Positions 1 through 7,989 of a DNA stretch of 7,989 nucleotides are shown here, piece after piece. How positions within the stretch are numbered: the first letter of the stretch is position 1; each line of letters opens with the position of its first letter. The notes under the pieces are model-generated. The model was given only the letters and a program-made list of their open reading frames with translations. It had not been told where the DNA came from and searched no databases. The stretch is from positions 1-7,989 of the IMG/VR virus record IMGVR_UViG_2630968500_000011; one strand, given 5' to 3'. The translations under genes were made by a program, and so were the position numbers. Source of the stretch: a virus. Lineage: Duplodnaviria; Heunggongvirae; Uroviricota; Caudoviricetes.

Positions 1-26
1 GGTGAAGTCGTTTGGTCATACGACAT
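1..26 (-). CDS. 5' end (8 codons, MSYDQTTS...) of a minus-strand gene that runs off the window start; product unknown
   Basis: ATG at 26..24 on the minus strand, preceded by AGGAG (complement of 32-36) with a 5-nt spacer. Frame is open to position 1. Too short to classify. Confidence 0.25.
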
Positions 27-166
27 AGCCGCTCCTGTAGATCAGAGCGGCGATAGCTGGACCAATGGGAAACATCAGATTATGGCTGGAGTTGTATTCT
101 CTTTACGCCGTGCTTTGGAACAGGCTGAAGTCTTTCCATCAGACCCTGAATGGAAATGGCCTTTTT

Positions 167-412
167 CTATTTGTCCAAATTCGGAGAGTACATTTCAGAA
201 AGTTGGTCAGAAAGTCGCACTCGAAGAGCATCAGCCAACTGTTTTCTGATTTTTTCAGGTAACTCGTCGGCATCGCAGAAACAACAACGCTCGATCATGT
301 TGAAAGCCGATTCGTAGAACTGTTTCTGCTGAGTGTCGCTGAGACAGGAAAAGAGCGACGTTACGATGATTTTATTAATTGCATTATCAAGTTCTTTTTC
401 ATCAAAAGTCAT
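167..412 (-). CDS. hypothetical small protein (81 aa), acidic, with a CCFC motif
   Basis: ORF 167..412 on minus strand. ATG at 412..410 is preceded by AAGGA about 7 nt upstream (complement of ~420-424). Composition looks like a soluble protein. Overlapping plus ORF 65..262 lacks an RBS. No family recognised. Confidence 0.55.
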   Translation of the reverse strand: MTFDEKELDNAINKIIVTSLFSCLSDTQQKQFYESAFNMIERCCFCDADELPEKIRKQLADALRVRLSDQLSEMYSPNLDK

Positions 413-665
413 TTGATTTTCCTTTTATGTATACGGACTTAAAAGGATACCACCGAGCCTGAAGTGGTGAAAAGACAGGCACATAACAGCTAAGTATTTT
501 CAACCAGAGAGAATCCTTAGCGTTGTGGTGAATGCGGCTCAGCGCACGCGGGTTAAGGTTGAGGCTGACAGTCGACCTTCTGTGGATACCCACCCGCCTG
601 GTGTGCAACCTTCGCCAGGCACCGGGAGGCACCCGGCACCACAACTTTATGCTGTGTGTAGTCTT

Positions 666-713
666 GGCGGTACCAGCTTGTACCCTTGCTTCCGGCTGGT
701 ACCGTCCTTTTTA
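666..713 (+). terminator. candidate intrinsic terminator / leader hairpin upstream of the operon
   Basis: 12-bp stem 666-677 / 695-706 (one G-U pair), 17-nt loop, followed by CTTTTTA (T-run 708-712). Loop is longer than in typical terminators. Confidence 0.4.
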
Positions 714-801
714 CAAAACAGAGAAGAGCATCACCGGACGACGGGCTCATAACCCAATCCATCCGGGCGGCAGTCACCGCAGGTGTTCTTCTCTGTTTTG
801 T
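713..801 (+). promoter_or_regulatory. leader structure: 15-bp perfect inverted repeat (713-727 ACAAAACAGAGAAGA / 787-801 TCTTCTCTGTTTTGT) enclosing 59 nt, ending 24 nt before the RBS of the first operon gene
   Basis: Arms are exact reverse complements, extendable to about 20 bp with wobble pairs (to 732 / 782). Enclosed segment is GC-rich with internal CCGGA/TCCGG pairing. Function as RNA stem or DNA operator pair is inferred. Confidence 0.45.
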
Positions 802-835
802 GGAGAAACTAATATCTTGTGCAGAGGAAAATAGA

Positions 836-1753
836 ATGAAATTACCAAAATTTCGTAACGCAATTGTGTACCGAGCAACATTACCTAGTATACAGGCTAT
901 TGAAGGGCATCTTCTCGAACTCCCTTATTCTGAAATCGGGGAAACAGAATTTTCACGGTCCTCTTTTGTAGAGAATCCTGTCACTGGTGAACTGGTAACT
1001 CCGATATCTGGTGGGTACGCAATGGTAATCCGTCATGATCAGAAAATAATTCCCCGACATGTCGTCATGAAAGAAGCTAATTCTCGAATCCAAACAATCG
1101 AAAATATGTCCGGGAATAAATTAAAGCGTGCCGAACGACTGGCCATTATTGATAACGTACGAGTAGATCTATGCAAACAGGCATTTGTTAAGTCTACGCT
1201 GATTCTTGCATTGTACAGCACTGATGAGAAATTATTGGTAATCAACACAACCAATAAAATAATAGCCGGTATGGTATGCGCAATGCTGATTAAGGTTGTC
1301 GGTTCAGTGAAAACAGAAACAATCAACATCAGTGATATCAAGAATGGACTGACTACACGCCTGAAGAACTACATCAATGGTGCAGCCAATGCATTTGAAG
1401 GATTCACTGTCGGGAATTATATTCAGCTATCACGCTACGCAGATCAAAAGGAAATTATTCGCTACTCAGCTGAGCATGAGTCAATTCAAAGCGAACTGGC
1501 CGATAGCCTTAGTAGTAGTTTCACTGCTGATAAAATGGAGTTATCCGGTTGCGGTGTGACCTTCATTCTTACCGAAAATTTCCATTTTTCGCGCATCAAT
1601 ACTCAATCTCAGACATTTAATGATGAAGATGATAAAGCATTCCAGTGGCGTCATCAGACTGGCACTGACCTTTTCCAATTCAGCAAGGTAGTTAATTTGA
1701 TGTGTGACCTTCTTTCTTACAAAGAAGATAAAAGCCAAAATCCAACAACTTAA
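836..1753 (+). CDS. RdgC-like recombination-associated protein (305 aa)
   Basis: ATG at 836 with GAGGAAA RBS at 825-831; the track ORF 686..1753 begins upstream without an RBS. N-terminus KFRNAIVYR and the segment AMVIRHDQKIIPRHVVMK resemble the RdgC family (FKNLMVYR and ICARKEEKILPSPVIKQ in E. coli RdgC, recalled from memory). Length matches the family (~303 aa). Confidence 0.75.
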   Translation: MKLPKFRNAIVYRATLPSIQAIEGHLLELPYSEIGETEFSRSSFVENPVTGELVTPISGGYAMVIRHDQKIIPRHVVMKEANSRIQTIENMSGNKLKRAERLAIIDNVRVDLCKQAFVKSTLILALYSTDEKLLVINTTNKIIAGMVCAMLIKVVGSVKTETINISDIKNGLTTRLKNYINGAANAFEGFTVGNYIQLSRYADQKEIIRYSAEHESIQSELADSLSSSFTADKMELSGCGVTFILTENFHFSRINTQSQTFNDEDDKAFQWRHQTGTDLFQFSKVVNLMCDLLSYKEDKSQNPTT

Positions 1754-1757
1754 AAAA

Positions 1758-1801
1758 ATTGCAGCAATCATCCCATGTCAAATGGGCTGGATTGCTGCAA
1801 T
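1758..1801. repeat. 11-bp perfect inverted repeat (ATTGCAGCAAT ... ATTGCTGCAAT) with nested 5-bp inner hairpin (CCCAT/ATGGG), intergenic
   Basis: Arms at 1758-1768 and 1791-1801. Preceded by an A7 run on the plus strand, so on the minus strand the hairpin is followed by a T7 run and looks like an intrinsic terminator facing antisense transcription. Could also be a protein-binding palindrome. Confidence 0.5.
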
Positions 1802-1842
1802 CAAAATTCAGCGCGGTGCAGCGCATATACGTGGAGAACAAA

Positions 1843-2379
1843 ATGTCATTTATTAAAACTTTTTCCGGGAAGCATTTTTATTATGACAGGATAAATAAAG
1901 ACAACATCGATATTAACGATATCGCGGTTTCCCTTTCAAATATCTGTCGCTTTGCCGGCCATCTTTCACACTTCTACAGCGTCGCCCAACATGCGGTGCT
2001 TTGCAGCCAGCTGGTACCGCAGGAATTTGCTTTTGAAGCGTTAATGCATGATGCAACAGAAGCGTATTGCCAGGACATTCCCTCACCACTGAAACGCCTT
2101 CTTCCTGACTATAAACGGATGGAAGAAAAAATAGACGCCGTAATCCGTGAGAAATACGGGTTACCCCCGGTTATGAGTACGCCCGTGAAATATGCCGATC
2201 TCATCATGCTGGCAACCGAACGCCGCGATCTCGGGCTTGATGATGGCTCTTTCTGGCCTGTACTGGAAGGTATCCCGGCAACAGAGATGTTCAAAGTTAT
2301 TCCACTGTCGCCAGGCCATGCCTATGGGATGTTTATGGAACGTTTTAACGAGTTATCGGAGTTACGCAAATGCGCATGA
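1843..2379 (+). CDS. yfdR: HD-domain 5'-deoxynucleotidase, YfdR/YfbR family (178 aa)
   Basis: ATG at 1843 with GGAGAA RBS at 1833-1838; the track start at 1759 would cover the palindrome and has no RBS. HD-superfamily motifs present: H in VAQHAVL, HD in LMHDATEAY, downstream Asp residues. Length and MSFIKTFSGKHFYYD N-terminus match my recollection of E. coli CPS-53 YfdR. Confidence 0.8.
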   Translation: MSFIKTFSGKHFYYDRINKDNIDINDIAVSLSNICRFAGHLSHFYSVAQHAVLCSQLVPQEFAFEALMHDATEAYCQDIPSPLKRLLPDYKRMEEKIDAVIREKYGLPPVMSTPVKYADLIMLATERRDLGLDDGSFWPVLEGIPATEMFKVIPLSPGHAYGMFMERFNELSELRKCA

Positions 2380-3017
2380 ATGTTTTCGAAATGGAAGGGT
2401 TTCTTCGCGGGAAATGTGTACCGCGAGATCTGAAAGTGAACGAAACAAACGCTGAATATCTGGTGCGTAAATTTGCTGAAGCGGAGGCCAAGATTTCGGC
2501 TCTGTCCGAAGACCACCAGAAAGCGATTGAGTCAATTAAGCAGGCTGATTCGGCTGTTAAGTTGGCACACGAGAAGTTTTCAGCGCTGGCGGCGGAGAAT
2601 GCGGGGCTGAAGTCATTTGGCGACAAGCTTAATGAGATGCATAACGACTTAAACGGCGAAGGCACGGGCATTCAGGGGCGCGCAGAGGTAGCGTGCCAGC
2701 AGGTGGCTCTTGAAGCGGCAATGGAAGAATTTGACGCTATCAAAACTCCAGCCACCGACGCCTTCCTGGATGAAGTGCGGGCGGATGCTCGCAACGAGGG
2801 GATTAACTATACCGCCAGCCGCCTCGCTGCCGCATTCAATCATGGTTTCGTTGATAAGCCGCTGGCTGAAGTCTGCGACGTGGTGCGCATGATTCTGGAC
2901 ACCAAAGAAGAACTGGCAAACTCCACGCTCCCATCGGCTGATGGGATTTCTGGCGAGTACGCAGAGAAGTTTCTCGCAGAGTTCGCCGCCCAACTTCGCC
3001 AGGAGCCAGCCCAATGA
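2370..3017 (+). CDS. hypothetical phage protein, Ala/Glu-rich and probably helical (215 aa)
   Basis: ATG at 2370 with GGAG at 2358-2361 (8-nt spacer); an alternative ATG at 2376 forms an ATGA overlap with the yfdR stop (2377-2379). Stop overlaps the next start (ATGA at 3014-3017). No family recognised. Confidence 0.65.
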   Translation: MRMNVFEMEGFLRGKCVPRDLKVNETNAEYLVRKFAEAEAKISALSEDHQKAIESIKQADSAVKLAHEKFSALAAENAGLKSFGDKLNEMHNDLNGEGTGIQGRAEVACQQVALEAAMEEFDAIKTPATDAFLDEVRADARNEGINYTASRLAAAFNHGFVDKPLAEVCDVVRMILDTKEELANSTLPSADGISGEYAEKFLAEFAAQLRQEPAQ

Positions 3018-3547
3018 GTATCGACAAACAGGCGCTGCGTGAAATCGCAGCGGCAGCAGTTGGCGCACATGAGCGCCTTAGTGTTATGCCGCCTGATGAC
3101 ATTTTCGATATCTCACTGGCAGAAGGAACTCAGCTTGATGCAGATATCACTGCCTTGAACGCGCTGAACTCCGCAGCAAACCCCACTACCGTGCTGGCGA
3201 TGCTGGATGAGTTGGAAGCCGCAAAAAAGCGCATAGCAGAACTGGAGGGGGGCGCATTCAATCCCGCAATTCTTGATGTGGTAGCAGAACGCCAGCGGCA
3301 ACAGTCGGTTGAAGGATGGACTCCTGAACATGACAACGCATATCAAAATAGCGAATTAGCAGATGCAGCGGCTTGTTACGCAATTCATGCGCACAACCAA
3401 GGTTTCTCCACTCCAGCACATTGGCCGTGGTCTCCTGACTGGTGGAAGCAATCAGGAGCACGCCGCGACTTAGTAAAAGCTGGCGCTCTTATTCTGGCAG
3501 AAATTGAACGTATTGACCGCGCCGCTGGCATTGGTAAGGGGGAGTGA
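3014..3547 (+). CDS. Ea22-like (ead) phage protein with a DUF550-like C-terminal region (177 aa)
   Basis: N-terminus MSIDKQALREIAAAA and the segment NPTTVLAMLDELEAAKKRIAELE resemble ead/Ea22-like proteins of lambdoid phages. C-terminal WTPEHDN...HWPWSPDWWKQSGARRDLVKAGALILAEIERIDRA resembles DUF550. Both recalled from memory. ATGA overlap with the upstream gene. Confidence 0.7.
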   Translation: MSIDKQALREIAAAAVGAHERLSVMPPDDIFDISLAEGTQLDADITALNALNSAANPTTVLAMLDELEAAKKRIAELEGGAFNPAILDVVAERQRQQSVEGWTPEHDNAYQNSELADAAACYAIHAHNQGFSTPAHWPWSPDWWKQSGARRDLVKAGALILAEIERIDRAAGIGKGE

Positions 3548-3978
3548 TGCTTCAACATCAAATGCAGCCAACATTTAACACCTGCATGGCTACCTGCGTT
3601 GCAATGGTTGCCGGTCAACCTGTCGATGAGGTAGTGGAACGCTGGCATCAGAAATTCCACGACAAAACAGACTGGCTCGACGACGCGCTGGATTATTACA
3701 AAATCCCGTATTTTTACGGAAGCCAGCGCAAGGCCGAATTGCTTTACGGGTTTATTTACTTCCTGACCGTTCCGTCACTGAACATCAAAGGCGGCCTGCA
3801 TCAGATTCTGATGTCGTTAACGGCAGAACGCGGCATAGAAGTATTTGACCCGGCAATGGGTCGGCCAGGATCAAAATATTACGTTTGGGGTGAAGCGCAG
3901 AACGATGATCAATTCGGCGTTATCTCCTGGTGCGTCGATTTATCGGTTCCGGTAGTGCAACAGAAAGGTGAGGACTAA
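3547..3978 (+). CDS. putative papain-fold cysteine peptidase, C39-like (143 aa)
   Basis: ATG at 3547 overlaps the upstream stop (TGATG at 3545-3549); the track start at 3544 is GTG. Motif order Q(7)...C(13) in QPTFNTCMATCVAMVAG, then His in GGLHQILMSL, then FDPAMG, matches the C39 peptidase Gln/Cys...His...Asp-Pro arrangement. Functional call is an inference. Confidence 0.5.
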   Translation: MLQHQMQPTFNTCMATCVAMVAGQPVDEVVERWHQKFHDKTDWLDDALDYYKIPYFYGSQRKAELLYGFIYFLTVPSLNIKGGLHQILMSLTAERGIEVFDPAMGRPGSKYYVWGEAQNDDQFGVISWCVDLSVPVVQQKGED

Positions 3979-3981
3979 CCC

Positions 3982-4827
3982 ATGAGCACTATTACCAAAG
4001 AACTGGCAAAGCTGTTCAGAAAAATTACGAATTCTGAAATTGATGCGGAGGGAAACGCTCATGTTGTTTTATCTCCTGCTGATAGCCTCCTGATTAATAA
4101 TGCGCGTATCGCGCTGGCATCGCTCGAAGCGGAGCCTGTGGCGTGGGCGCACAGATTAATCAACAAGCGTAACGGAGTCGTTCACCCTTGGGTTTACGGT
4201 AGCGCAGAGGCGTGTCCAAGCGAGGGGGATATCTTCAATATTGAGGTAATGCCGCTCTACACCGTCCCTCCAGCGCCGGTATCTGTGCCCGCTGCGATGG
4301 AAATGGATGATGACTTTGACAGCGCGTTTGAACACGGAAAAGCTGTCGGCTGGAACGCCTATCGCGCCGCCATGCTTCAGGCCGAACCTGTAAGTAATAG
4401 TGATGAGTTACCGCTGGACTATCTGCAAGGACACAAAGACGGCCTGGAGTGGGCTGCACAATTGGCAGAAGCCAATCATCCGCAAACAGGTGACTGGTTG
4501 TACGATGACCCAATCGATCTTGCCAGGGCGATTCGCAAAGGTCCGGATATGCCTACTGTTCAGGGTGGCAATTCTCCGGTAACTCCGGATGCTTGGATAA
4601 GCTGTAGTGAGCGAATGCCAGAAATGGGAGAGCGACAATGCTATGTGTTAGCAGCTGACTTTAAAAACAACTACCCACCAAACATCCCCAACACTCAGGT
4701 CGGCGTATATGGCGACTGGTTTAATGATGGCAATCCCACTTGGGATGACGGTGATGGCGAAGACCTGTATCTCAAAGAGGTAACCCACTGGATGCCTCTA
4801 CCAGAACCGCCGCAGGAGGTAAAGTGA
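3982..4827 (+). CDS. DUF551-domain phage protein (281 aa)
   Basis: ATG at 3982 with AGGTGAGGA RBS at 3966-3974. C-terminal WISCSERMPE...CYVLAA...VTHWMPLPEPP is the characteristic DUF551 signature. N-terminal two thirds have no recognised family. Confidence 0.75.
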   Translation: MSTITKELAKLFRKITNSEIDAEGNAHVVLSPADSLLINNARIALASLEAEPVAWAHRLINKRNGVVHPWVYGSAEACPSEGDIFNIEVMPLYTVPPAPVSVPAAMEMDDDFDSAFEHGKAVGWNAYRAAMLQAEPVSNSDELPLDYLQGHKDGLEWAAQLAEANHPQTGDWLYDDPIDLARAIRKGPDMPTVQGGNSPVTPDAWISCSERMPEMGERQCYVLAADFKNNYPPNIPNTQVGVYGDWFNDGNPTWDDGDGEDLYLKEVTHWMPLPEPPQEVK

Positions 4828-5399
4828 TGAACAACTTAATGATCGACCTTGAGACGATGGGGAAAAATAAGGATGCGCCGATCGTTTCTATTGGCGCAGT
4901 GTTCTTCACCCCAGAAACCGGAGACATCGGACAAGAATTCTATGCGGCTGTCAGCTTGGACAGTGCTATGGAGCAAGGGGCCACACCTGACGGCGACACC
5001 ATCCTGTGGTGGTTGAAACAAAGCCCTGAAGCACGAGCTGCAATCTGTATTGATGATACTTTGTCGATCAGCGATGCACTCTCTGAACTGAGCCATTTCA
5101 TTAATCGGCACGCAGACAATACGAAATATTTAAAAGTCTGGGGTAACGGAGCCAACTTCGACAACGTAATTTTACGCGGAGCTTATGAGCGAGCAGGACA
5201 AATCTGCCCATGGGCGTACTGGAATGATCACGATGCGCGCACGATCGTTACGCTTGGGCGTTCCATCGGATTCGACCCAAAAATGGACATGCCTTTCGAT
5301 GGCGAACGGCACAACGCCCTGGCTGATGCTCGTCATCAGGCAAAATATGTTTCCGCTATCTGGCAGAAATTAATTCCTGCCACCAGCACAGAATTATGA
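4827..5399 (+). CDS. DEDDh-family 3'-5' exonuclease, Rv2179c-like phage exonuclease (190 aa)
   Basis: ATG at 4827 overlaps the upstream stop (TGATG), with AGGAGG RBS at 4814-4819; track start 4824 is GTG. Exo motifs: MIDLETMG (D, E), WGNGANFD (D), HNALADARH (H...D). TILWWLKQ matches the phage Rv2179c-like subfamily. Confidence 0.8.
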   Translation: MNNLMIDLETMGKNKDAPIVSIGAVFFTPETGDIGQEFYAAVSLDSAMEQGATPDGDTILWWLKQSPEARAAICIDDTLSISDALSELSHFINRHADNTKYLKVWGNGANFDNVILRGAYERAGQICPWAYWNDHDARTIVTLGRSIGFDPKMDMPFDGERHNALADARHQAKYVSAIWQKLIPATSTEL

Positions 5400-5435
5400 T
5401 TTTCCCGGGTGCAGCCGGTTTTGATGGAGAAAATT

Positions 5436-5717
5436 ATGAACACCTTGTTTTTACTGATGGCTGAATTCAATACCCCTAACATTGAACTCTCAGCAGTTAG
5501 CCAAAAGTACTTTGGCATGAGTCCAGCCACGGCAGAAGCAAAAGCAAACGCTTGTAAGTTGCCCGTTCCAACATATCGCATCGGCACATCACAAAAAGCA
5601 AAACGTTGCATCAATATTCAGGATCTTGCGGAATACATAGACAAAAGACGAGAAGAAGGACGTATCGAGTGGGAACAGGTCAGAACAAGCAAACAGAAGG
5701 GCAAAGAACATCACTAA
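5436..5717 (+). CDS. PrtN-family (pyocin-activator-like) DNA-binding protein; probable excisionase/recombination directionality factor or regulator (93 aa)
   Basis: ATG at 5436 with GGAGA at 5426-5430 (5-nt spacer); alternative starts at ATG 5424 and GTG 5409. MNTLFLLMAEF...YFGMSPATAEAKANACKLPVPTYRIG...IQDLAEYIDKRR resembles the PrtN family. Terminal position before a terminator fits an Xis-like role (inference). Confidence 0.7.
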   Translation: MNTLFLLMAEFNTPNIELSAVSQKYFGMSPATAEAKANACKLPVPTYRIGTSQKAKRCINIQDLAEYIDKRREEGRIEWEQVRTSKQKGKEHH

Positions 5718-5720
5718 AGA

Positions 5721-5748
5721 AAAAACCCGCCTAAAGGCGGGTTTTCAA
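5721..5748. terminator. bidirectional rho-independent terminator shared by convergent genes
   Basis: AAAAAACCCGCC-TAAA-GGCGGGTTTTC: GC-rich stem (5725-5731 / 5736-5742), 4-nt loop, T-run on the plus strand and T6 on the minus strand. Lies 4 nt after the plus-strand stop (5715-5717) and 17 nt after the minus-strand stop (5765-5767). Confidence 0.8.
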
Positions 5749-5764
5749 AAAGCACCAGCTATGA

Positions 5765-5938
5765 TCATGCTGCTTTGCGACGACGAAGCTTACCCTGCTG
5801 CTCTTTACCAGAGACAGTAGCGTGAGTGAACGCATTAGGAGCAGCCTTCATCAGAACTTCAACAGCAGCACCCATACCTGCGAATGCTTTCATTGTGTCG
5901 AACTTAACCTGTGGCTTGGTTGCTTTTTGATCTTTCAT
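5765..5938 (-). CDS. small basic protein, 57 aa (MKDQKATKPQVKFDTMKAFAGMGAAVEVLMKAAPNAFTHATVSGKEQQGKLRRRKAA); function unknown
   Basis: Not in the ORF track. Hand translation of the minus strand: ATG at 5938..5936 preceded by GGGAG (complement of 5945-5949) with a 6-nt spacer, stop at 5767..5765, then the strong terminator. No family recognised. Confidence 0.6.
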   Translation of the reverse strand: MKDQKATKPQVKFDTMKAFAGMGAAVEVLMKAAPNAFTHATVSGKEQQGKLRRRKAA

Positions 5939-6008
5939 AGAAAACTCCCGAGACAGTAAAGGCGTCTCTAACCCTCTCTTTAAAGCTAGCTTGTTTCGCT
6001 AACTTATG

Positions 6009-6029
6009 CCAATCGATCATGTCGATTGG
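6009..6029. repeat. 21-bp palindrome CCAATCGA-tcatg-TCGATTGG, candidate operator
   Basis: Perfect 8-bp arms with a 5-nt spacer, about 70-90 bp upstream of the small-ORF start. No adjacent T-run, so not a terminator. Confidence 0.4.
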
Positions 6030-6104
6030 TGACATCGTTTCTTAGTAGTTTAAGCACAAAACGACTGCCATAGATGTACCTTTAAGGTAATCTGGACGGG
6101 TATC

Positions 6105-6117
6105 CTACAATTTGTAG
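6105..6117. repeat. 13-bp palindrome CTACAA-t-TTGTAG
   Basis: 6-bp perfect arms around a single central base, 18 bp downstream of the stop of the minus-strand 177-aa gene. Could be a binding site or a weak hairpin. Confidence 0.3.
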
Positions 6118-6134
6118 ACCCTTCTCGTCTATAC

Positions 6135-6668
6135 CTACTGAGCAAATTTAAGAAAGATATCCTGCAGCTCATCAATGACTGCAGACATCACATAACCGCA
6201 CTGTTCCATGCGGAAACCAAAAGACTCGTAATACTGCACCAGTTCTGGTACTGGCTCTACAATGTGGACAACTTTACATTCAACAGCTTTACAAAATATA
6301 AAAGCACTCATAAGAGTGAGTAAAACCATGCGCCCTTTCAATGGGTGAGATTCATCTTCTCTAGAAAACCTTTCGATCATATGGATACGAAAGATGTTTT
6401 CTTCAACCCCATAAACACAAATTGCTGCTCCTGATGGTATTCCCTGAACCCGACCTTGCTGAACAAGTTTTATGCAGAACTCATACTTTTCTCTGGAGTT
6501 GCCATAGGTACTTAACGCATAGTCCCATTCAAGCTCACCATAGCCACCACACAGAATCTTGTAATCATCATCACTGAGCGGACCAACAGCAAGAGGTAAG
6601 CCGACATGATCAATAATCAACTGGATATTGTTACGTACTGATTGACCTATCTCGTCCAGGGTAAGCAT
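6135..6668 (-). CDS. hypothetical protein (177 aa), AT-rich gene; tentative GNAT-related / acyltransferase-like fold
   Basis: ORF 6135..6671 minus; the second ATG (6668..6666) is better placed behind GAGAGG. The ELEWDY and IERFSRE segments and a C-terminal beta-alpha pattern (KVVHIVEPVPELVQYYESFGF) loosely resemble GNAT-fold or LuxI-type acyltransferases. Weak, memory-based. Confidence 0.6.
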   Translation of the reverse strand: MLTLDEIGQSVRNNIQLIIDHVGLPLAVGPLSDDDYKILCGGYGELEWDYALSTYGNSREKYEFCIKLVQQGRVQGIPSGAAICVYGVEENIFRIHMIERFSREDESHPLKGRMVLLTLMSAFIFCKAVECKVVHIVEPVPELVQYYESFGFRMEQCGYVMSAVIDELQDIFLKFAQ

Positions 6669-6700
6669 CATGGCCTCTCAAGCGGAACACTAAAAGTCGC

Positions 6701-6706
6701 ATTATA
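6701..6706 (-). promoter_or_regulatory. candidate -10 hexamer (TATAAT on minus strand) for the 177-aa gene
   Basis: Perfect TATAAT on the minus strand, 29 nt upstream of the start codon. No convincing -35 element. Confidence 0.25.
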
Positions 6707-7218
6707 TCTCATTCTTAAGCCGCGTATGGATTACACCTTGAAATGAAAACGCCGGGTTCCCAATAGGCTCCCACAGAGTGTATAACTACTTGTTTTTCAA
6801 CAACGGTACATCCTATCGAGCATTGGTGCAACGCTAAACCGACCACTCCAGTGAACGTCAGTTTTTTCAGGCATTGCGCTGGTTTGGTTGATTTTTTGCA
6901 TTTCAGAATTACCGTGCATTTTCAAATGTAGAGATTATTTTATCGATATATCATGGGGTTATGTTATTCAGCATCACTGTTCAGGAGGCTCAATAGCGGG
7001 GTACTATACCATAACAACAGGAAGCGCCTGTCTCATTGCAAAAGAAAATTGAGATCCTCTCAAGGCATGAAGCTCTCACGAAGTGATGGAAATAATCTTA
7101 TTAGCCGTTAACTTTGTTAAGGCCAATGATAAACAATCCAGGTTCGACGATAAATAAAAAATCACACATTAAACTCTGGTAATATATCTCCCTGCTAATA
7201 GCATTGATAGAGAAAAAA

Positions 7219-7245
7219 GAACCCAATAAATATTGGGTCCTTTTA
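7219..7245. terminator. candidate intrinsic terminator downstream of the truncated minus-strand gene (bidirectional-looking)
   Basis: Stem ACCCAA / TTGGGT (7221-7226 / 7233-7238) with 6-nt loop. Flanked by TCTTTTTTCT on the minus strand and CCTTTT on the plus strand. Lies 37 nt downstream of the stop at 7282-7284. Confidence 0.5.
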
Positions 7246-7281
7246 TATAATGCCTTCCATACTATCGAAGAACTTCACATA

Positions 7282-7989
7282 TTATTTCTCCGATTTAACC
7301 CCGAACAAATCATAAATTAATTTAGAAGTGTCTGTAAGTATTTTAATCTCTTCCTTTGAGGTTGGGTCAAACGACTTCGCGAAGCTAATTAATTGTGGTG
7401 CAGCATCTCGCATTTTGCTTAAAATATCAGGATCGAGCGTTCCTTCATTCACCAGATGTGACATCTTATCCAGATAGCCATCAAAATTCATTTCTCCCCC
7501 ATCAGCCAGACGCTTCATCTCTCCCAGGTACTTCTTCATATCACGTTGAGATAATTTTTCAAACTGAGCTTTCAGGTAGCTCTCATTATTTTCATTAATA
7601 TACACTGTTTCTGATAAATCTGCGTAGGCACTAGAATATGAAAGTGAAATTAACAGCGAAGCAAATAATTTTAAGCTGTTGTCATCATGTTCCTGGCAGG
7701 CATTAACAAACGTTAAAAAACCAGAACCTATTGCTTGAAAATGTATATTCGCTAAAGGTTCATTATCCTTAGATTCCTCATAAAATAGCTGAACCGTGGA
7801 GGGAAGGTCATTCTTAGTTTCTACATCAAAAGTACATTGTTCAATGGGCATTGCATCTTTATTATCCCCAAGATTACATATACTATTAATCGCGAAATGA
7901 AAAATAGCCCGGTCAACAACTGATGCAATAAAGTCACGATCGTTTAAATCCTCATCAGTGCAATCGTCAATATACTTATTGACCCACAT
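7282..7989 (-). CDS. C-terminal part (at least 235 aa) of a hypothetical protein on AT-rich DNA; gene continues beyond the window end
   Basis: Minus-strand frame open from the window edge to TAA at 7284..7282. Coding-like composition. The Met at the edge may be internal. No family recognised. Confidence 0.6.
   Translation of the reverse strand: MWVNKYIDDCTDEDLNDRDFIASVVDRAIFHFAINSICNLGDNKDAMPIEQCTFDVETKNDLPSTVQLFYEESKDNEPLANIHFQAIGSGFLTFVNACQEHDDNSLKLFASLLISLSYSSAYADLSETVYINENNESYLKAQFEKLSQRDMKKYLGEMKRLADGGEMNFDGYLDKMSHLVNEGTLDPDILSKMRDAAPQLISFAKSFDPTSKEEIKILTDTSKLIYDLFGVKSEK

Follow-up and report, generated by a model that had tools for sequence, protein, structure and literature searches.

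The window analysed here is a stretch of 7,989 nucleotides (nt), positions 1 to 7,989 of IMG/VR record IMGVR_UViG_2630968500_000011. Its source is a prophage of Escherichia coli strain G5 (NZ_CP060065), to which it is 100% identical, and its position 1 corresponds to about 9211 in the G5 locus coordinates (L002). This report concerns the gap at 413-835, which separates a minus-strand gene of unassigned function (167-412; PHROG 3311) from the plus-strand gene rdgC (836-1753, ATG at 836; Pfam PF04381, 1.4e-30; PHROG 724). Further plus-strand genes follow rdgC and encode a YfdR-like 5'-deoxynucleotidase, an Ead/Ea22 protein, a DUF551 protein, a 3'-5' exonuclease and a PrtN/excisionase-like protein. 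A cI-type repressor gene lies on the same strand in G5, about 2 kb upstream of the gap, and the order of cI, leader and first early gene is also found in SfV, ST64B, 118970_sal3, phiES15, phiNP and cdtI. This gene set is the early-left arm of a lambdoid prophage, running toward the attachment site. Within this arm, 413-835 is probably the distal non-coding part of a pL-type early-left transcript of an SfV/ST64B/CPS-53-like lambdoid prophage, forming a modular RNA cassette of the dicBF kind. The cassette is related to DicF and STnc100 and carries a copy of the RprA seed as well as a conserved hairpin of the size cut by RNase III; through it, the phage may tap a host stress network.

The general layout of the locus is a closed domain, a seed-terminator module, a closed long-stem domain and then the first open reading frame (ORF). 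The fold of 480-840 has an energy of -150.3 kcal/mol (z = -6.6), and the GC content of the leader is about 0.6, compared with 0.3-0.45 around it. An initial annotation of this DNA had described a long, structured, untranslated leader between divergent genes, with no credible ORF. The region is indeed structured and untranslated, but to call it the promoter-proximal leader of two divergent genes would be wrong, the putative pL promoter lying about 1.5 kb upstream. No frame in the gap shows conservation or, in Pfam and PHROG searches, belongs to a family, although mechanical ORFs do exist, namely program-made frames at 532-834 (100 amino acids (aa)) and 525-752 plus two on the minus strand. The only annotation placed in the gap by the Prokaryotic Genome Annotation Pipeline (PGAP) is a frameshifted pseudo 'hypothetical protein' fragment. 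The rdgC frame is itself open upstream to a TTG at 686, and the resulting 355-aa mechanical ORF crosses the terminator and the long hairpin.

It is very improbable that the region encodes a small protein, whether the 100-aa product of 532-834, whose stop lies one base before the rdgC start, or an RdgC extended at its N terminus from TTG 686. Both frames are open in the window, where the PGAP pseudo-coding sequence is also located, and one of them remains open through the hairpin in several relatives; such stop-free frames are explained by the purine-rich and pyrimidine-rich arms of the long hairpin together with a GC-rich core. In ST64B, sal3, Kp4866 and phiNP the 100-aa frame is broken by an interruption or a shift of frame, and the TTG-686 extension is not conserved in relatives having other first genes. 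In addition, indels in the terminator loop and the hairpin tip are not multiples of three, and the stem substitutions are compensatory. A coding reading of 532-834, 525-752 or the TTG-686 extension was rejected because the frames are not kept and have no Pfam or PHROG match. The gap at 413-835 is non-coding and contains no conserved ORF.

The seed-terminator module and RprA

The hairpin and T-run noted at 666-713 in the initial annotation are present in the fold as an intrinsic terminator, or small RNA (sRNA) 3' hairpin, on the plus strand. It consists of a GC-rich 13-base-pair (bp) stem (666-678/694-706) with a 15-nt loop, a centroid fold energy of about -22 kcal/mol, and the tail CUUUUUA at 707-713 that includes a U5 run at 708-712. 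A consensus terminator scan missed this structure only because its loop exceeds 8 nt. Immediately upstream on the same strand, UUUAUGCUGUGUGUAGUCUU (646-665) is predicted to be single-stranded, being unpaired in the fold of 646-713. Within this stretch, the 16-mer UGCUGUGUGUAGUCUU at 650-665 reproduces nt 62-77 of E. coli RprA exactly; the RprA sequence is printed in PMC5606850 and PMC7311995. RprA nt 62-77 fall inside the form processed by RNase E, which comprises the last 47 nt (PMC9262595; PMC6202311). Folds of 646-713, DicF and processed RprA have a common layout of about 20 unpaired nt, a hairpin and a U-run, and in processed RprA, as in the window, the unpaired stretch leads directly into the terminator hairpin. 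Identity was found with the single-stranded 3'-domain sequence of RprA, and no homology with the whole RNA (5' stem-loops, rpoS-pairing region and terminator). The window has neither the two 5' stem-loops nor the rpoS-pairing region around nt 42, its terminator hairpin is a different one, and it is borne by a prophage, away from the rprA locus; regulation by Rcs or Cpx is not expected for the window RNA.

A scan of viral contigs for the 16-mer yielded at least 113 unique contexts, and the counts derived from it refer to the matches listed. The 16-mer is followed by a stable hairpin abutting a T-run in 104 of 109 unique contexts, and the stem sequences are highly varied. Because the sequence of the stem changes freely, with compensation, in more than 100 phage contexts, the predicted terminator appears to be genuine. 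None of the 113 contexts carries the 5' half of RprA; in BLAST comparisons RprA aligns with them only from its position 41 on, and past position 55 in 112 of them, and therefore they are not host rprA genes. In some phage variants the identity to RprA extends to as many as 20 nt. A search of one genome per species for the 16-mer followed by the start of the phage-type hairpin found 20 loci in at least 12 Enterobacterales genera, and these too are without the 5' half of RprA. When cis targets of the seed were sought in the window and the 19-kb prophage region, only a trivial antisense self-match was obtained. In the open-access literature we found no paper describing a phage RprA-like RNA or printing these phage sequences, and, measured against that literature, phage copies of the RprA seed would be new.

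Loci found independently of the seed, by means of the tip motif of the long stem, possess alternative versions of the stretch 5' of the terminator. The commonest alternative seed, ACAACAGCCACUGCUUU, precedes the same terminator hairpin in cdtI (L014, about 2480-2500), in Stx2c phages and in many viral contigs (L019-L092), and GCCACUGCUUU within this allele equals nt 1-11 of the host sRNA RybB, which form its seed. When the seed alleles were compared with a panel of 15 known sRNAs, only RprA, RybB and DicF stood out, the rest giving a background of 9 nt or less. Rarer alleles also exist. Qin carries the DicF seed, and in Qin-like loci the 16-mer substitutes for that seed between the same flanks. 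The occupation of a single site by alternative RybB- and DicF-type seeds argues that 646-665 is a functional seed, and suggests a swappable-seed locus in which some seeds may have been copied from those of host sRNAs.

The surroundings of the module vary among relatives. In ST64B (L009, about 2685-2700), L013 and L234-L251, the terminator loop holds an insert, absent from the window, that has a conserved Shine-Dalgarno sequence and start (GGAGG-N7-9-AUAAUGUUCUGCC) and opens a short ORF (MFCRGTALFT...) whose length differs greatly, from 10 codons to over 60, and which extends into the long hairpin's 5' arm. Several GGAAAGACC motifs in short hairpins follow the RprA-like seed and terminator in L154, L163-L166, L174, L176, L177, L212 and L213; this arrangement, in which GGA motifs are repeated, may represent a distinct RNA element. 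In L202 (about 7380-7533), a tRNA-Arg(UCU) begins directly 3' of the RprA-like terminator.

The STnc100-like domain and the dicBF arrangement

The plus-strand region upstream of the seed resembles STnc100. It begins with a 5' hairpin, CUAAGUAUUUUC...GAGAAUCCUUAG (490-521), that is present in both the minimum free energy and centroid folds and aligns to the 5' part of the STnc100 model. This hairpin is followed by a closed multi-helix domain of the STnc100 family (522-645), the closing helix of which, GUUGUGGUG/CACCACAAC, pairs 522-530 with 637-645. Inner hairpins lie at 534-549, 555-579, 582-593 and 596-620, and the last of the five, CCGGG-AGGCA-CCCGG at 622-636, has an invariant loop. The initial annotation had proposed folding the region and scanning it with Rfam. 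The fold is strong, as given above, but Rfam yielded no match at gathering thresholds across the whole window, and leads were obtained only in a permissive scan, in which the complete STnc100 model (RF02076, 1-206/206) aligned over 492-715 with 43.4 bits (E = 3.3e-8).

Membership in the STnc100 family was assessed on the three helices that can be aligned: the closing helix, the first inner hairpin and the AGGCA-loop hairpin. Across 18 diverse relatives, including the canonical Stx-phage STnc100 as well as Qin, P1-like and Klebsiella types, these helices are 97% paired, and 10 of their 19 pairs have changed on both sides. None of 500 shuffles was as good, and slid alignments were 24-49% paired. 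In addition to the alignment of the whole 206-position model, the window copy has in common with STnc100/PasD the GGUGAAU and CACCGGGAGGCACCCGGCACCA motifs, the closing helix and the terminal hairpin with its U-run, and it too lies in lambdoid prophage DNA. It diverges in the first inner hairpin and the mid-domain sequence, and it has another 3' seed. Furthermore, it is found in an early-left leader, whereas known copies lie in the late region, downstream of stx or Q. The same domain also occurs upstream of kil in phiES15 and in P1-like phage-plasmids, and STnc100 copies are found downstream of stx2B in antiterminated late operons. In one P1-like phage-plasmid (L003, 1772-1925 and 3730-3805) the STnc100-like domain is located between tRNA-Asn/Thr and tRNA-Met genes. 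The closing helix and hairpin, being like an acceptor and T-arm, raised the idea of a C4/CI-type RNase P substrate, which was set aside when the permissive Rfam scan gave no C4 match. PasB was rejected as a published name for this RNA, since PasB sits among phage structural genes.

The arrangement of the cassette is closely paralleled in Qin, a prophage carried by E. coli K-12. In this cryptic prophage (L005, 2947-3087), an STnc100-like domain (34 bits) that is not annotated lies between dicF and dicB, and the closing helix of this domain, about 20 bp long, starts immediately downstream of the DicF terminator. The dicBF transcript gives rise to DicF through termination and through cleavage by RNase III, which generates the 5' terminus of a species of 190 nt, and by RNase E, which yields the 53-nt RNA (bioRxiv 10.1101/2023.04.14.536235). 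A distance of 190 nt back from the annotated 3' end of DicF leads to the point where the closing helix of the domain upstream has its base (GGUUGUGGC); the equivalent distance in the window, from the closing-helix base at 522 to the terminator end at 713, is 192 nt. Each locus is part of an early operon under repressor control in a lambdoid prophage, and each comprises a structured domain, a 15-20-nt single-stranded seed, a GGCGG...CCGCC hairpin, a U-run, a closed long-stem domain and the first ORF. A direct link between them is provided by phage cdtI, in which a module with the hairpin of the window comes after a domain that is 89% identical to the domain immediately preceding dicF. Thus, the window module occupies the equivalent position between closed domains, before the first ORF. 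The two loci differ in that the window seed is RprA-like while the DicF seed targets ftsZ, in that the STnc100-like domain is upstream of the sRNA in the window and downstream of it in Qin, and in the downstream gene, which is rdgC in the window and dicB in Qin. The module is a positional homologue of DicF with a different seed, and belongs to neither the DicF nor the RprA family of Rfam. By analogy with DicF, this fits a scheme in which STnc100-sized RNAs would be precursors and the short seed-terminator RNA the active product.

The initial annotation had suggested either a small RNA ending at the terminator or an RNase III-processed leader. A candidate small RNA with that 3' end is the best reading, given the sub-threshold, full-length STnc100 match and the seed-hairpin-U-run layout that resembles DicF and processed RprA. 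The suggestion is therefore partly supported; it fits, yet it is incomplete, as it did not recognise the domain of the STnc100 family, the 16 nt identical to RprA, the position equivalent to that of DicF or the resemblance of the long stem's tip to tRNA-fMet.

The long stem upstream of rdgC

The 15-nt perfect inverted repeat at 713-727/787-801 described in the initial annotation is the longest perfect one in the window. It had been considered unlikely to occur by chance, and in agreement with this 300 shuffles of the whole window that preserved dinucleotides gave perfect repeats of 13 nt at most, never 14. The repeat extends to 25 nt at 84% complementarity and lies within a plus-strand long-stem structure (708-806) in which a 25-bp stem (708-732/782-806), taking in the U-run of the terminator, carries a forked tip (-50.2 kcal/mol, z = -8.4). 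The ends of the repeat (801) and the stem (806) are about 20 nt upstream of GAGG, the Shine-Dalgarno sequence of rdgC. Compensatory changes, which the initial annotation had named as a check on the stem, are present among relatives: in an alignment of 27 variants about 94.5% of positions are paired, and both partners have changed in 11 of 33 pairs, including 6 of the 20 that make up the long stem. No shuffle out of 500 did as well, and slid alignments reached 39-49%. Position 723/791 is G-C in the window and mismatched in most variants. Several pairs of the long stem are G.U on the plus strand and would be C.A mismatches on the other strand, which argues that the functional form is the plus-strand RNA.

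The presence of a stem is more widespread than any one stem sequence. Among the matches listed, a helix of at least 15 pairs starting no more than 12 nt from the T-run was found in 78 of 104 unique seed-found contexts, and these helices show 37 different 5'-arm sequences, some of them unrelated (for example, CACAACUGAAAGCGCGUUC/GAACGCGCUCUCAAUUGUG). In Qin, the closing helix of the STnc100-like domain holds the place of the long stem. These observations bear on the idea that the inverted repeat acts as DNA, serving as an operator, a recombination site or a cruciform. A perfect 15-bp palindromic arm pair, in a region that is a mosaic junction between phage modules, would suit such a role. The idea is nonetheless highly unlikely to be correct: 59 nt separate the arms (39 nt in the case of the extended repeat), pairing is kept via G.U pairs that are mismatches in DNA and on the other strand, the stem sequences differ wholly between lineages while position and length are kept, and the repressor operators differ in sequence and sit elsewhere.

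With regard to the function of the stem as RNA, it is not a second terminator because no U-run follows it, and it cannot be an anti-terminator because its partner arm is transcribed after the termination decision. A nearly perfect duplex of 25 bp is of the classic size for RNase III substrates (at least 20 bp of nearly perfect double-stranded RNA). Leaders processed by RNase III include the lambda N leader, sib and metY-nusA-infB, the last of which comprises a tRNA-fMet gene, terminators, RNase III hairpins and ORFs. In these systems, as in the window, a stable RNA or terminator upstream is separated from the first ORF by a long, near-perfect duplex; no sequence similarity is claimed. The most economical roles for the long stem would be as a site of RNase III cleavage or as a structure that stabilises the 5' end of the mRNA downstream.

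The tip of the structure has two plus-strand arms. The first (734-766) is a CCGGA/UCCGG stem that closes the hairpin GGG-CUCAUAA-CCC at 743-755. The second (767-780) is a small, variable hairpin, GCGG-CAGUCA-CCGC, which has longer inserts in relatives and shows compensatory changes in the alignment of 27 variants. Over 14 nt, the 743-755 arm is identical to what we take to be the anticodon arm of the E. coli initiator tRNA-fMet, and a 17-nt pattern derived from it also matched true phage tRNA-Met(CAT) genes (L099, 10292-10366; L054, 9856-9935). In independently found loci the loop is mostly YYCAUAA, with UUAAUAA and CCAACCCU also occurring, and other stem classes are without an anticodon-like arm. 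ARAGORN detected no tRNA or tmRNA in the window and, in contrast to metY-nusA-infB, the tip is an anticodon-arm look-alike only. We regard it as an apparent resemblance, as yet unexplained, and not as a finding.

A different role for 708-806 was also considered. Rather than an RNase III site, the structure might be a 5' stabiliser or a translational control element, or might mimic the tRNA anticodon arm and bind a factor that recognises tRNA-fMet, such as the 30S P site/initiation factor 3 (IF3), methionyl-tRNA synthetase (MetRS) or an anticodon nuclease. The stem is always a few tens of nt upstream of the first ORF, be it rdgC, a yfdP/sb37-like gene or another, and the GGG-CUCAUAA-CCC tip, with its presumed identity to the initiator arm and the pattern it has in common with real tRNA-Met genes, is more conserved than the stem. 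Such a role is not very likely, as the L137, L198 and L220 types of stem have no anticodon-like arm at the same position, loops without CAU occur, no bacterial precedent for such a mimic was found, and the duplex is of RNase III substrate size; the two roles are compatible.

Promoter, predicted processing and distribution of the cassette

Operator-like repeats of the cI-cro type recur just past the cI terminator in G5, ST64B, sal3 and phiNP; in G5 (L002, about 8095-8170) they read TTGCACATCTCGCAA and ACTTGCGTATATCGCA. Because the repeats recur there, pL is placed just downstream of cI, at a putative position beyond the window and about 1.5 kb upstream of the cassette. Directly downstream of the putative pL/operator lies an element of about 60-67 nt, about 85% conserved, that was seen in G5 (L002, 8262-8320), ST64B (L009, 2170-2225), SfV, phiNP and Kp4866-6. 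Its consensus is CAGGACGNCCACGAAGUAGCCGCCGGUGGCRUAYGAAUGACCGGAUGAUUCG, and it could be a nut/put-like site or another small RNA.

We infer the following course for promoter use, transcript ends, RNase III and RNase E cleavage, Hfq dependence and RprA-like targeting. A repressor-controlled promoter just downstream of cI would drive transcription through the cassette, and the first product would be a structured RNA of about 190-200 nt, composed of the domain at 490-645, the 20-nt single-stranded stretch and the terminator at 666-713. Part of the transcripts would stop at this terminator, and RNase III would cut the closing helix; both steps are proposed by analogy with DicF and its precursor (192 vs 190 nt). 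RNase E prefers to cut before U-rich stretches, and the sequence ACAAC/UUUAU just past the domain resembles such a site; cleavage there would release an Hfq-type sRNA of about 65 nt. This sRNA would act in trans on mRNAs recognised by the RprA 3' domain, and would thus be a prophage copy of a host envelope-stress seed. Transcripts that read through would fold the 708-806 stem, as an RNase III processing site or a 5' stabiliser. In either case, the stem would separate the sRNA cassette from the mRNA running from rdgC to xis and would set the 5' end of that mRNA.

The terminator and the domain upstream of it could instead serve transcription control in cis, as a tL-type barrier at which the upstream RNA acts on RNA polymerase in the manner of HK022 put or recruits an antiterminator, read-through occurring only in lytic growth and the sRNA being a by-product. 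A strong hairpin with a U-run in the middle of the operon, when the distal xis-like genes need expression after induction, would be accounted for, and no N-like gene is evident between pL and the cassette. The STnc100 copies in antiterminated late operons downstream of stx2B and the further conserved 67-nt element directly after pL in several of these phages also point this way. We nevertheless consider control in cis quite unlikely. An HK022 put-type antiterminator RNA was rejected, the ST64B and G5 leaders having no BLAST similarity to HK022 19000-37000, an 18-kb segment within which the unannotated pL/pR and put regions are assumed to lie and which was compared at the sequence level. Moreover, the domain is upstream of the terminator in the window and downstream in Qin, and the strict, unpaired 16-nt identity to a trans-acting host sRNA, preceding freely varying hairpins, is left unexplained by a role in cis.

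Several points weigh against an RprA-seeded sRNA cassette transcribed from pL. The STnc100 score of 43.4 bits is 3.6 below the gathering threshold of 47; the Rfam DicF model (RF00039) reaches only 19.4 bits (E = 0.094) at 653-707, compared with a gathering threshold of 48 and 76.7 for genuine DicF, and the RprA model (RF00034) has no match at E up to 10 in the permissive scan. A promoter scan found no plus-strand sigma-70-like promoter within 250-1000, two minus-strand genes lie between pL and the cassette in G5, and transcription of the cassette in a lysogen is a prediction from the sequence. The 15-nt loop of the terminator is large, making the efficiency of termination uncertain, and in the longest fold the seed part at 651-660 pairs with 480-490. 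Since the search patterns required either the 16-mer or the tip motif, the conservation of these motifs is partly circular, and only the independently found sets correct for this. The best-known pairing of RprA with rpoS involves RprA nt 42, upstream of the shared 16-mer, and activation of rpoS is not predicted because the phage RNA lacks this pairing region. Papenfort and colleagues are reported to have described, in 2015, two seed domains in RprA, with ricI regulated via the 3' domain, and the assignment of RprA targets to nt 62-77 follows that study. Finally, STnc100 is a prophage sRNA family without an established function that was recently linked to PasD (bioRxiv 10.64898/2026.05.13.724894; PMC12370729), and no open-access paper describing its function was found.

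Other phage RNAs join host sRNA networks by different means. StxS uses the rpoS site of RprA, DsrA and ArcZ (PMC7547250), while AgvB and AsxR mimic mRNA targets and thereby sponge host sRNAs (PMC4104026). The predicted window RNA would resemble these as a phage-encoded, terminator-defined RNA of the Hfq type. StxS differs in that it derives from pR'-tR' and has function, not sequence, in common with RprA, and AgvB and AsxR differ in that the window copies the host sRNA's own seed, in sense orientation. As a tentative possibility, lambdoid prophages of the Enterobacterales may carry, at the DicF position, a swappable-seed cassette whose seeds are copied from host envelope-stress sRNAs (the RprA 3' domain here; the first 11 nt of RybB in cdtI and Stx2c phages) and drive the host RprA and RybB target sets from a repressor-controlled promoter, with the adjacent long hairpin displaying a mimic of the initiator-tRNA anticodon arm.

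Should the RNA be produced and functional, it would provide a direct example of a phage that copies the sequence by which a core bacterial sRNA recognises its targets, as opposed to sponging that sRNA or converging on one target. Prophage induction, or leaky early transcription, would then be tied to that part of the network of envelope stress, biofilm and conjugation in which RprA acts, and sister alleles would tie the prophage to the RybB outer-membrane-protein regulon. The STnc100 family would gain a functional frame, as precursors of about 190-200 nt that bear a 3' seed-terminator module and are processed like DicF, and SfV and ST64B would offer a simple experimental system for the movement of seeds between chromosomes and phages. 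If the cassette is only a scaffold for processing or termination, it would still represent a well-defined, conserved family of RNA structures with good covariation, outside the current Rfam.

Some part of 413-835 is present in 2786 of 5426 complete E. coli genomes, and at least 80% of the region in 1813 of them. By sequence comparison, K-12 CPS-53 lacks the cassette in its yfdO-yfdP gap; yfdP was rejected as a counterpart of a leader ORF, since it matches SfV orf32, downstream of the cassette. BLAST comparisons with phages and E. coli genomes showed that the region is assembled from separable mosaic pieces. Positions 444-489 recur at about 95% identity in Klebsiella phages and Rac-SA53, about 506-670 in ST64B (88%), phiES15 (77%) and P1-like phage-plasmids (70%), and 664-812 in many lambdoid and Stx2c phages (about 95%). 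Similarity to SfV and to most E. coli and phage relatives ends at about 812-813, a mosaic junction. This junction (about 812/813) falls in the plus-strand linker to the first gene (807-835), which contains the conserved cassette tail GGAGAAAC and the Shine-Dalgarno sequence of rdgC at 824-827. A locus in an assembly labelled Chryseobacterium sp. 18061 (L237) contains an enterobacterial cassette nearly identical to the Scandinavium copy (L235), which suggests contamination or mislabelling.

At its other end, the cassette is preceded by an AT-rich upstream spacer (413-489, plus strand) with hairpins at 420-430/437-447 and 449-468, the latter of which reads as a terminator-like site on the minus strand. 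A 91-bp segment of the window, 446-536, comprising spacer, 5' hairpin and 15 nt from the start of the STnc100-like domain, is duplicated at 100% identity about 600 bp upstream in G5 (L002, 9001-9091). The two copies flank the minus-strand gene at 167-412, and this duplication suggests that the gene is a moron inserted into a cassette. The start and ribosome-binding regions of the divergent genes, at 409-423 and 825-839, are near-identical when inverted (AGGAAAAUCAAAUGA vs AGGAAAAUAGAAUGA), 13 of 15 positions being complementary.

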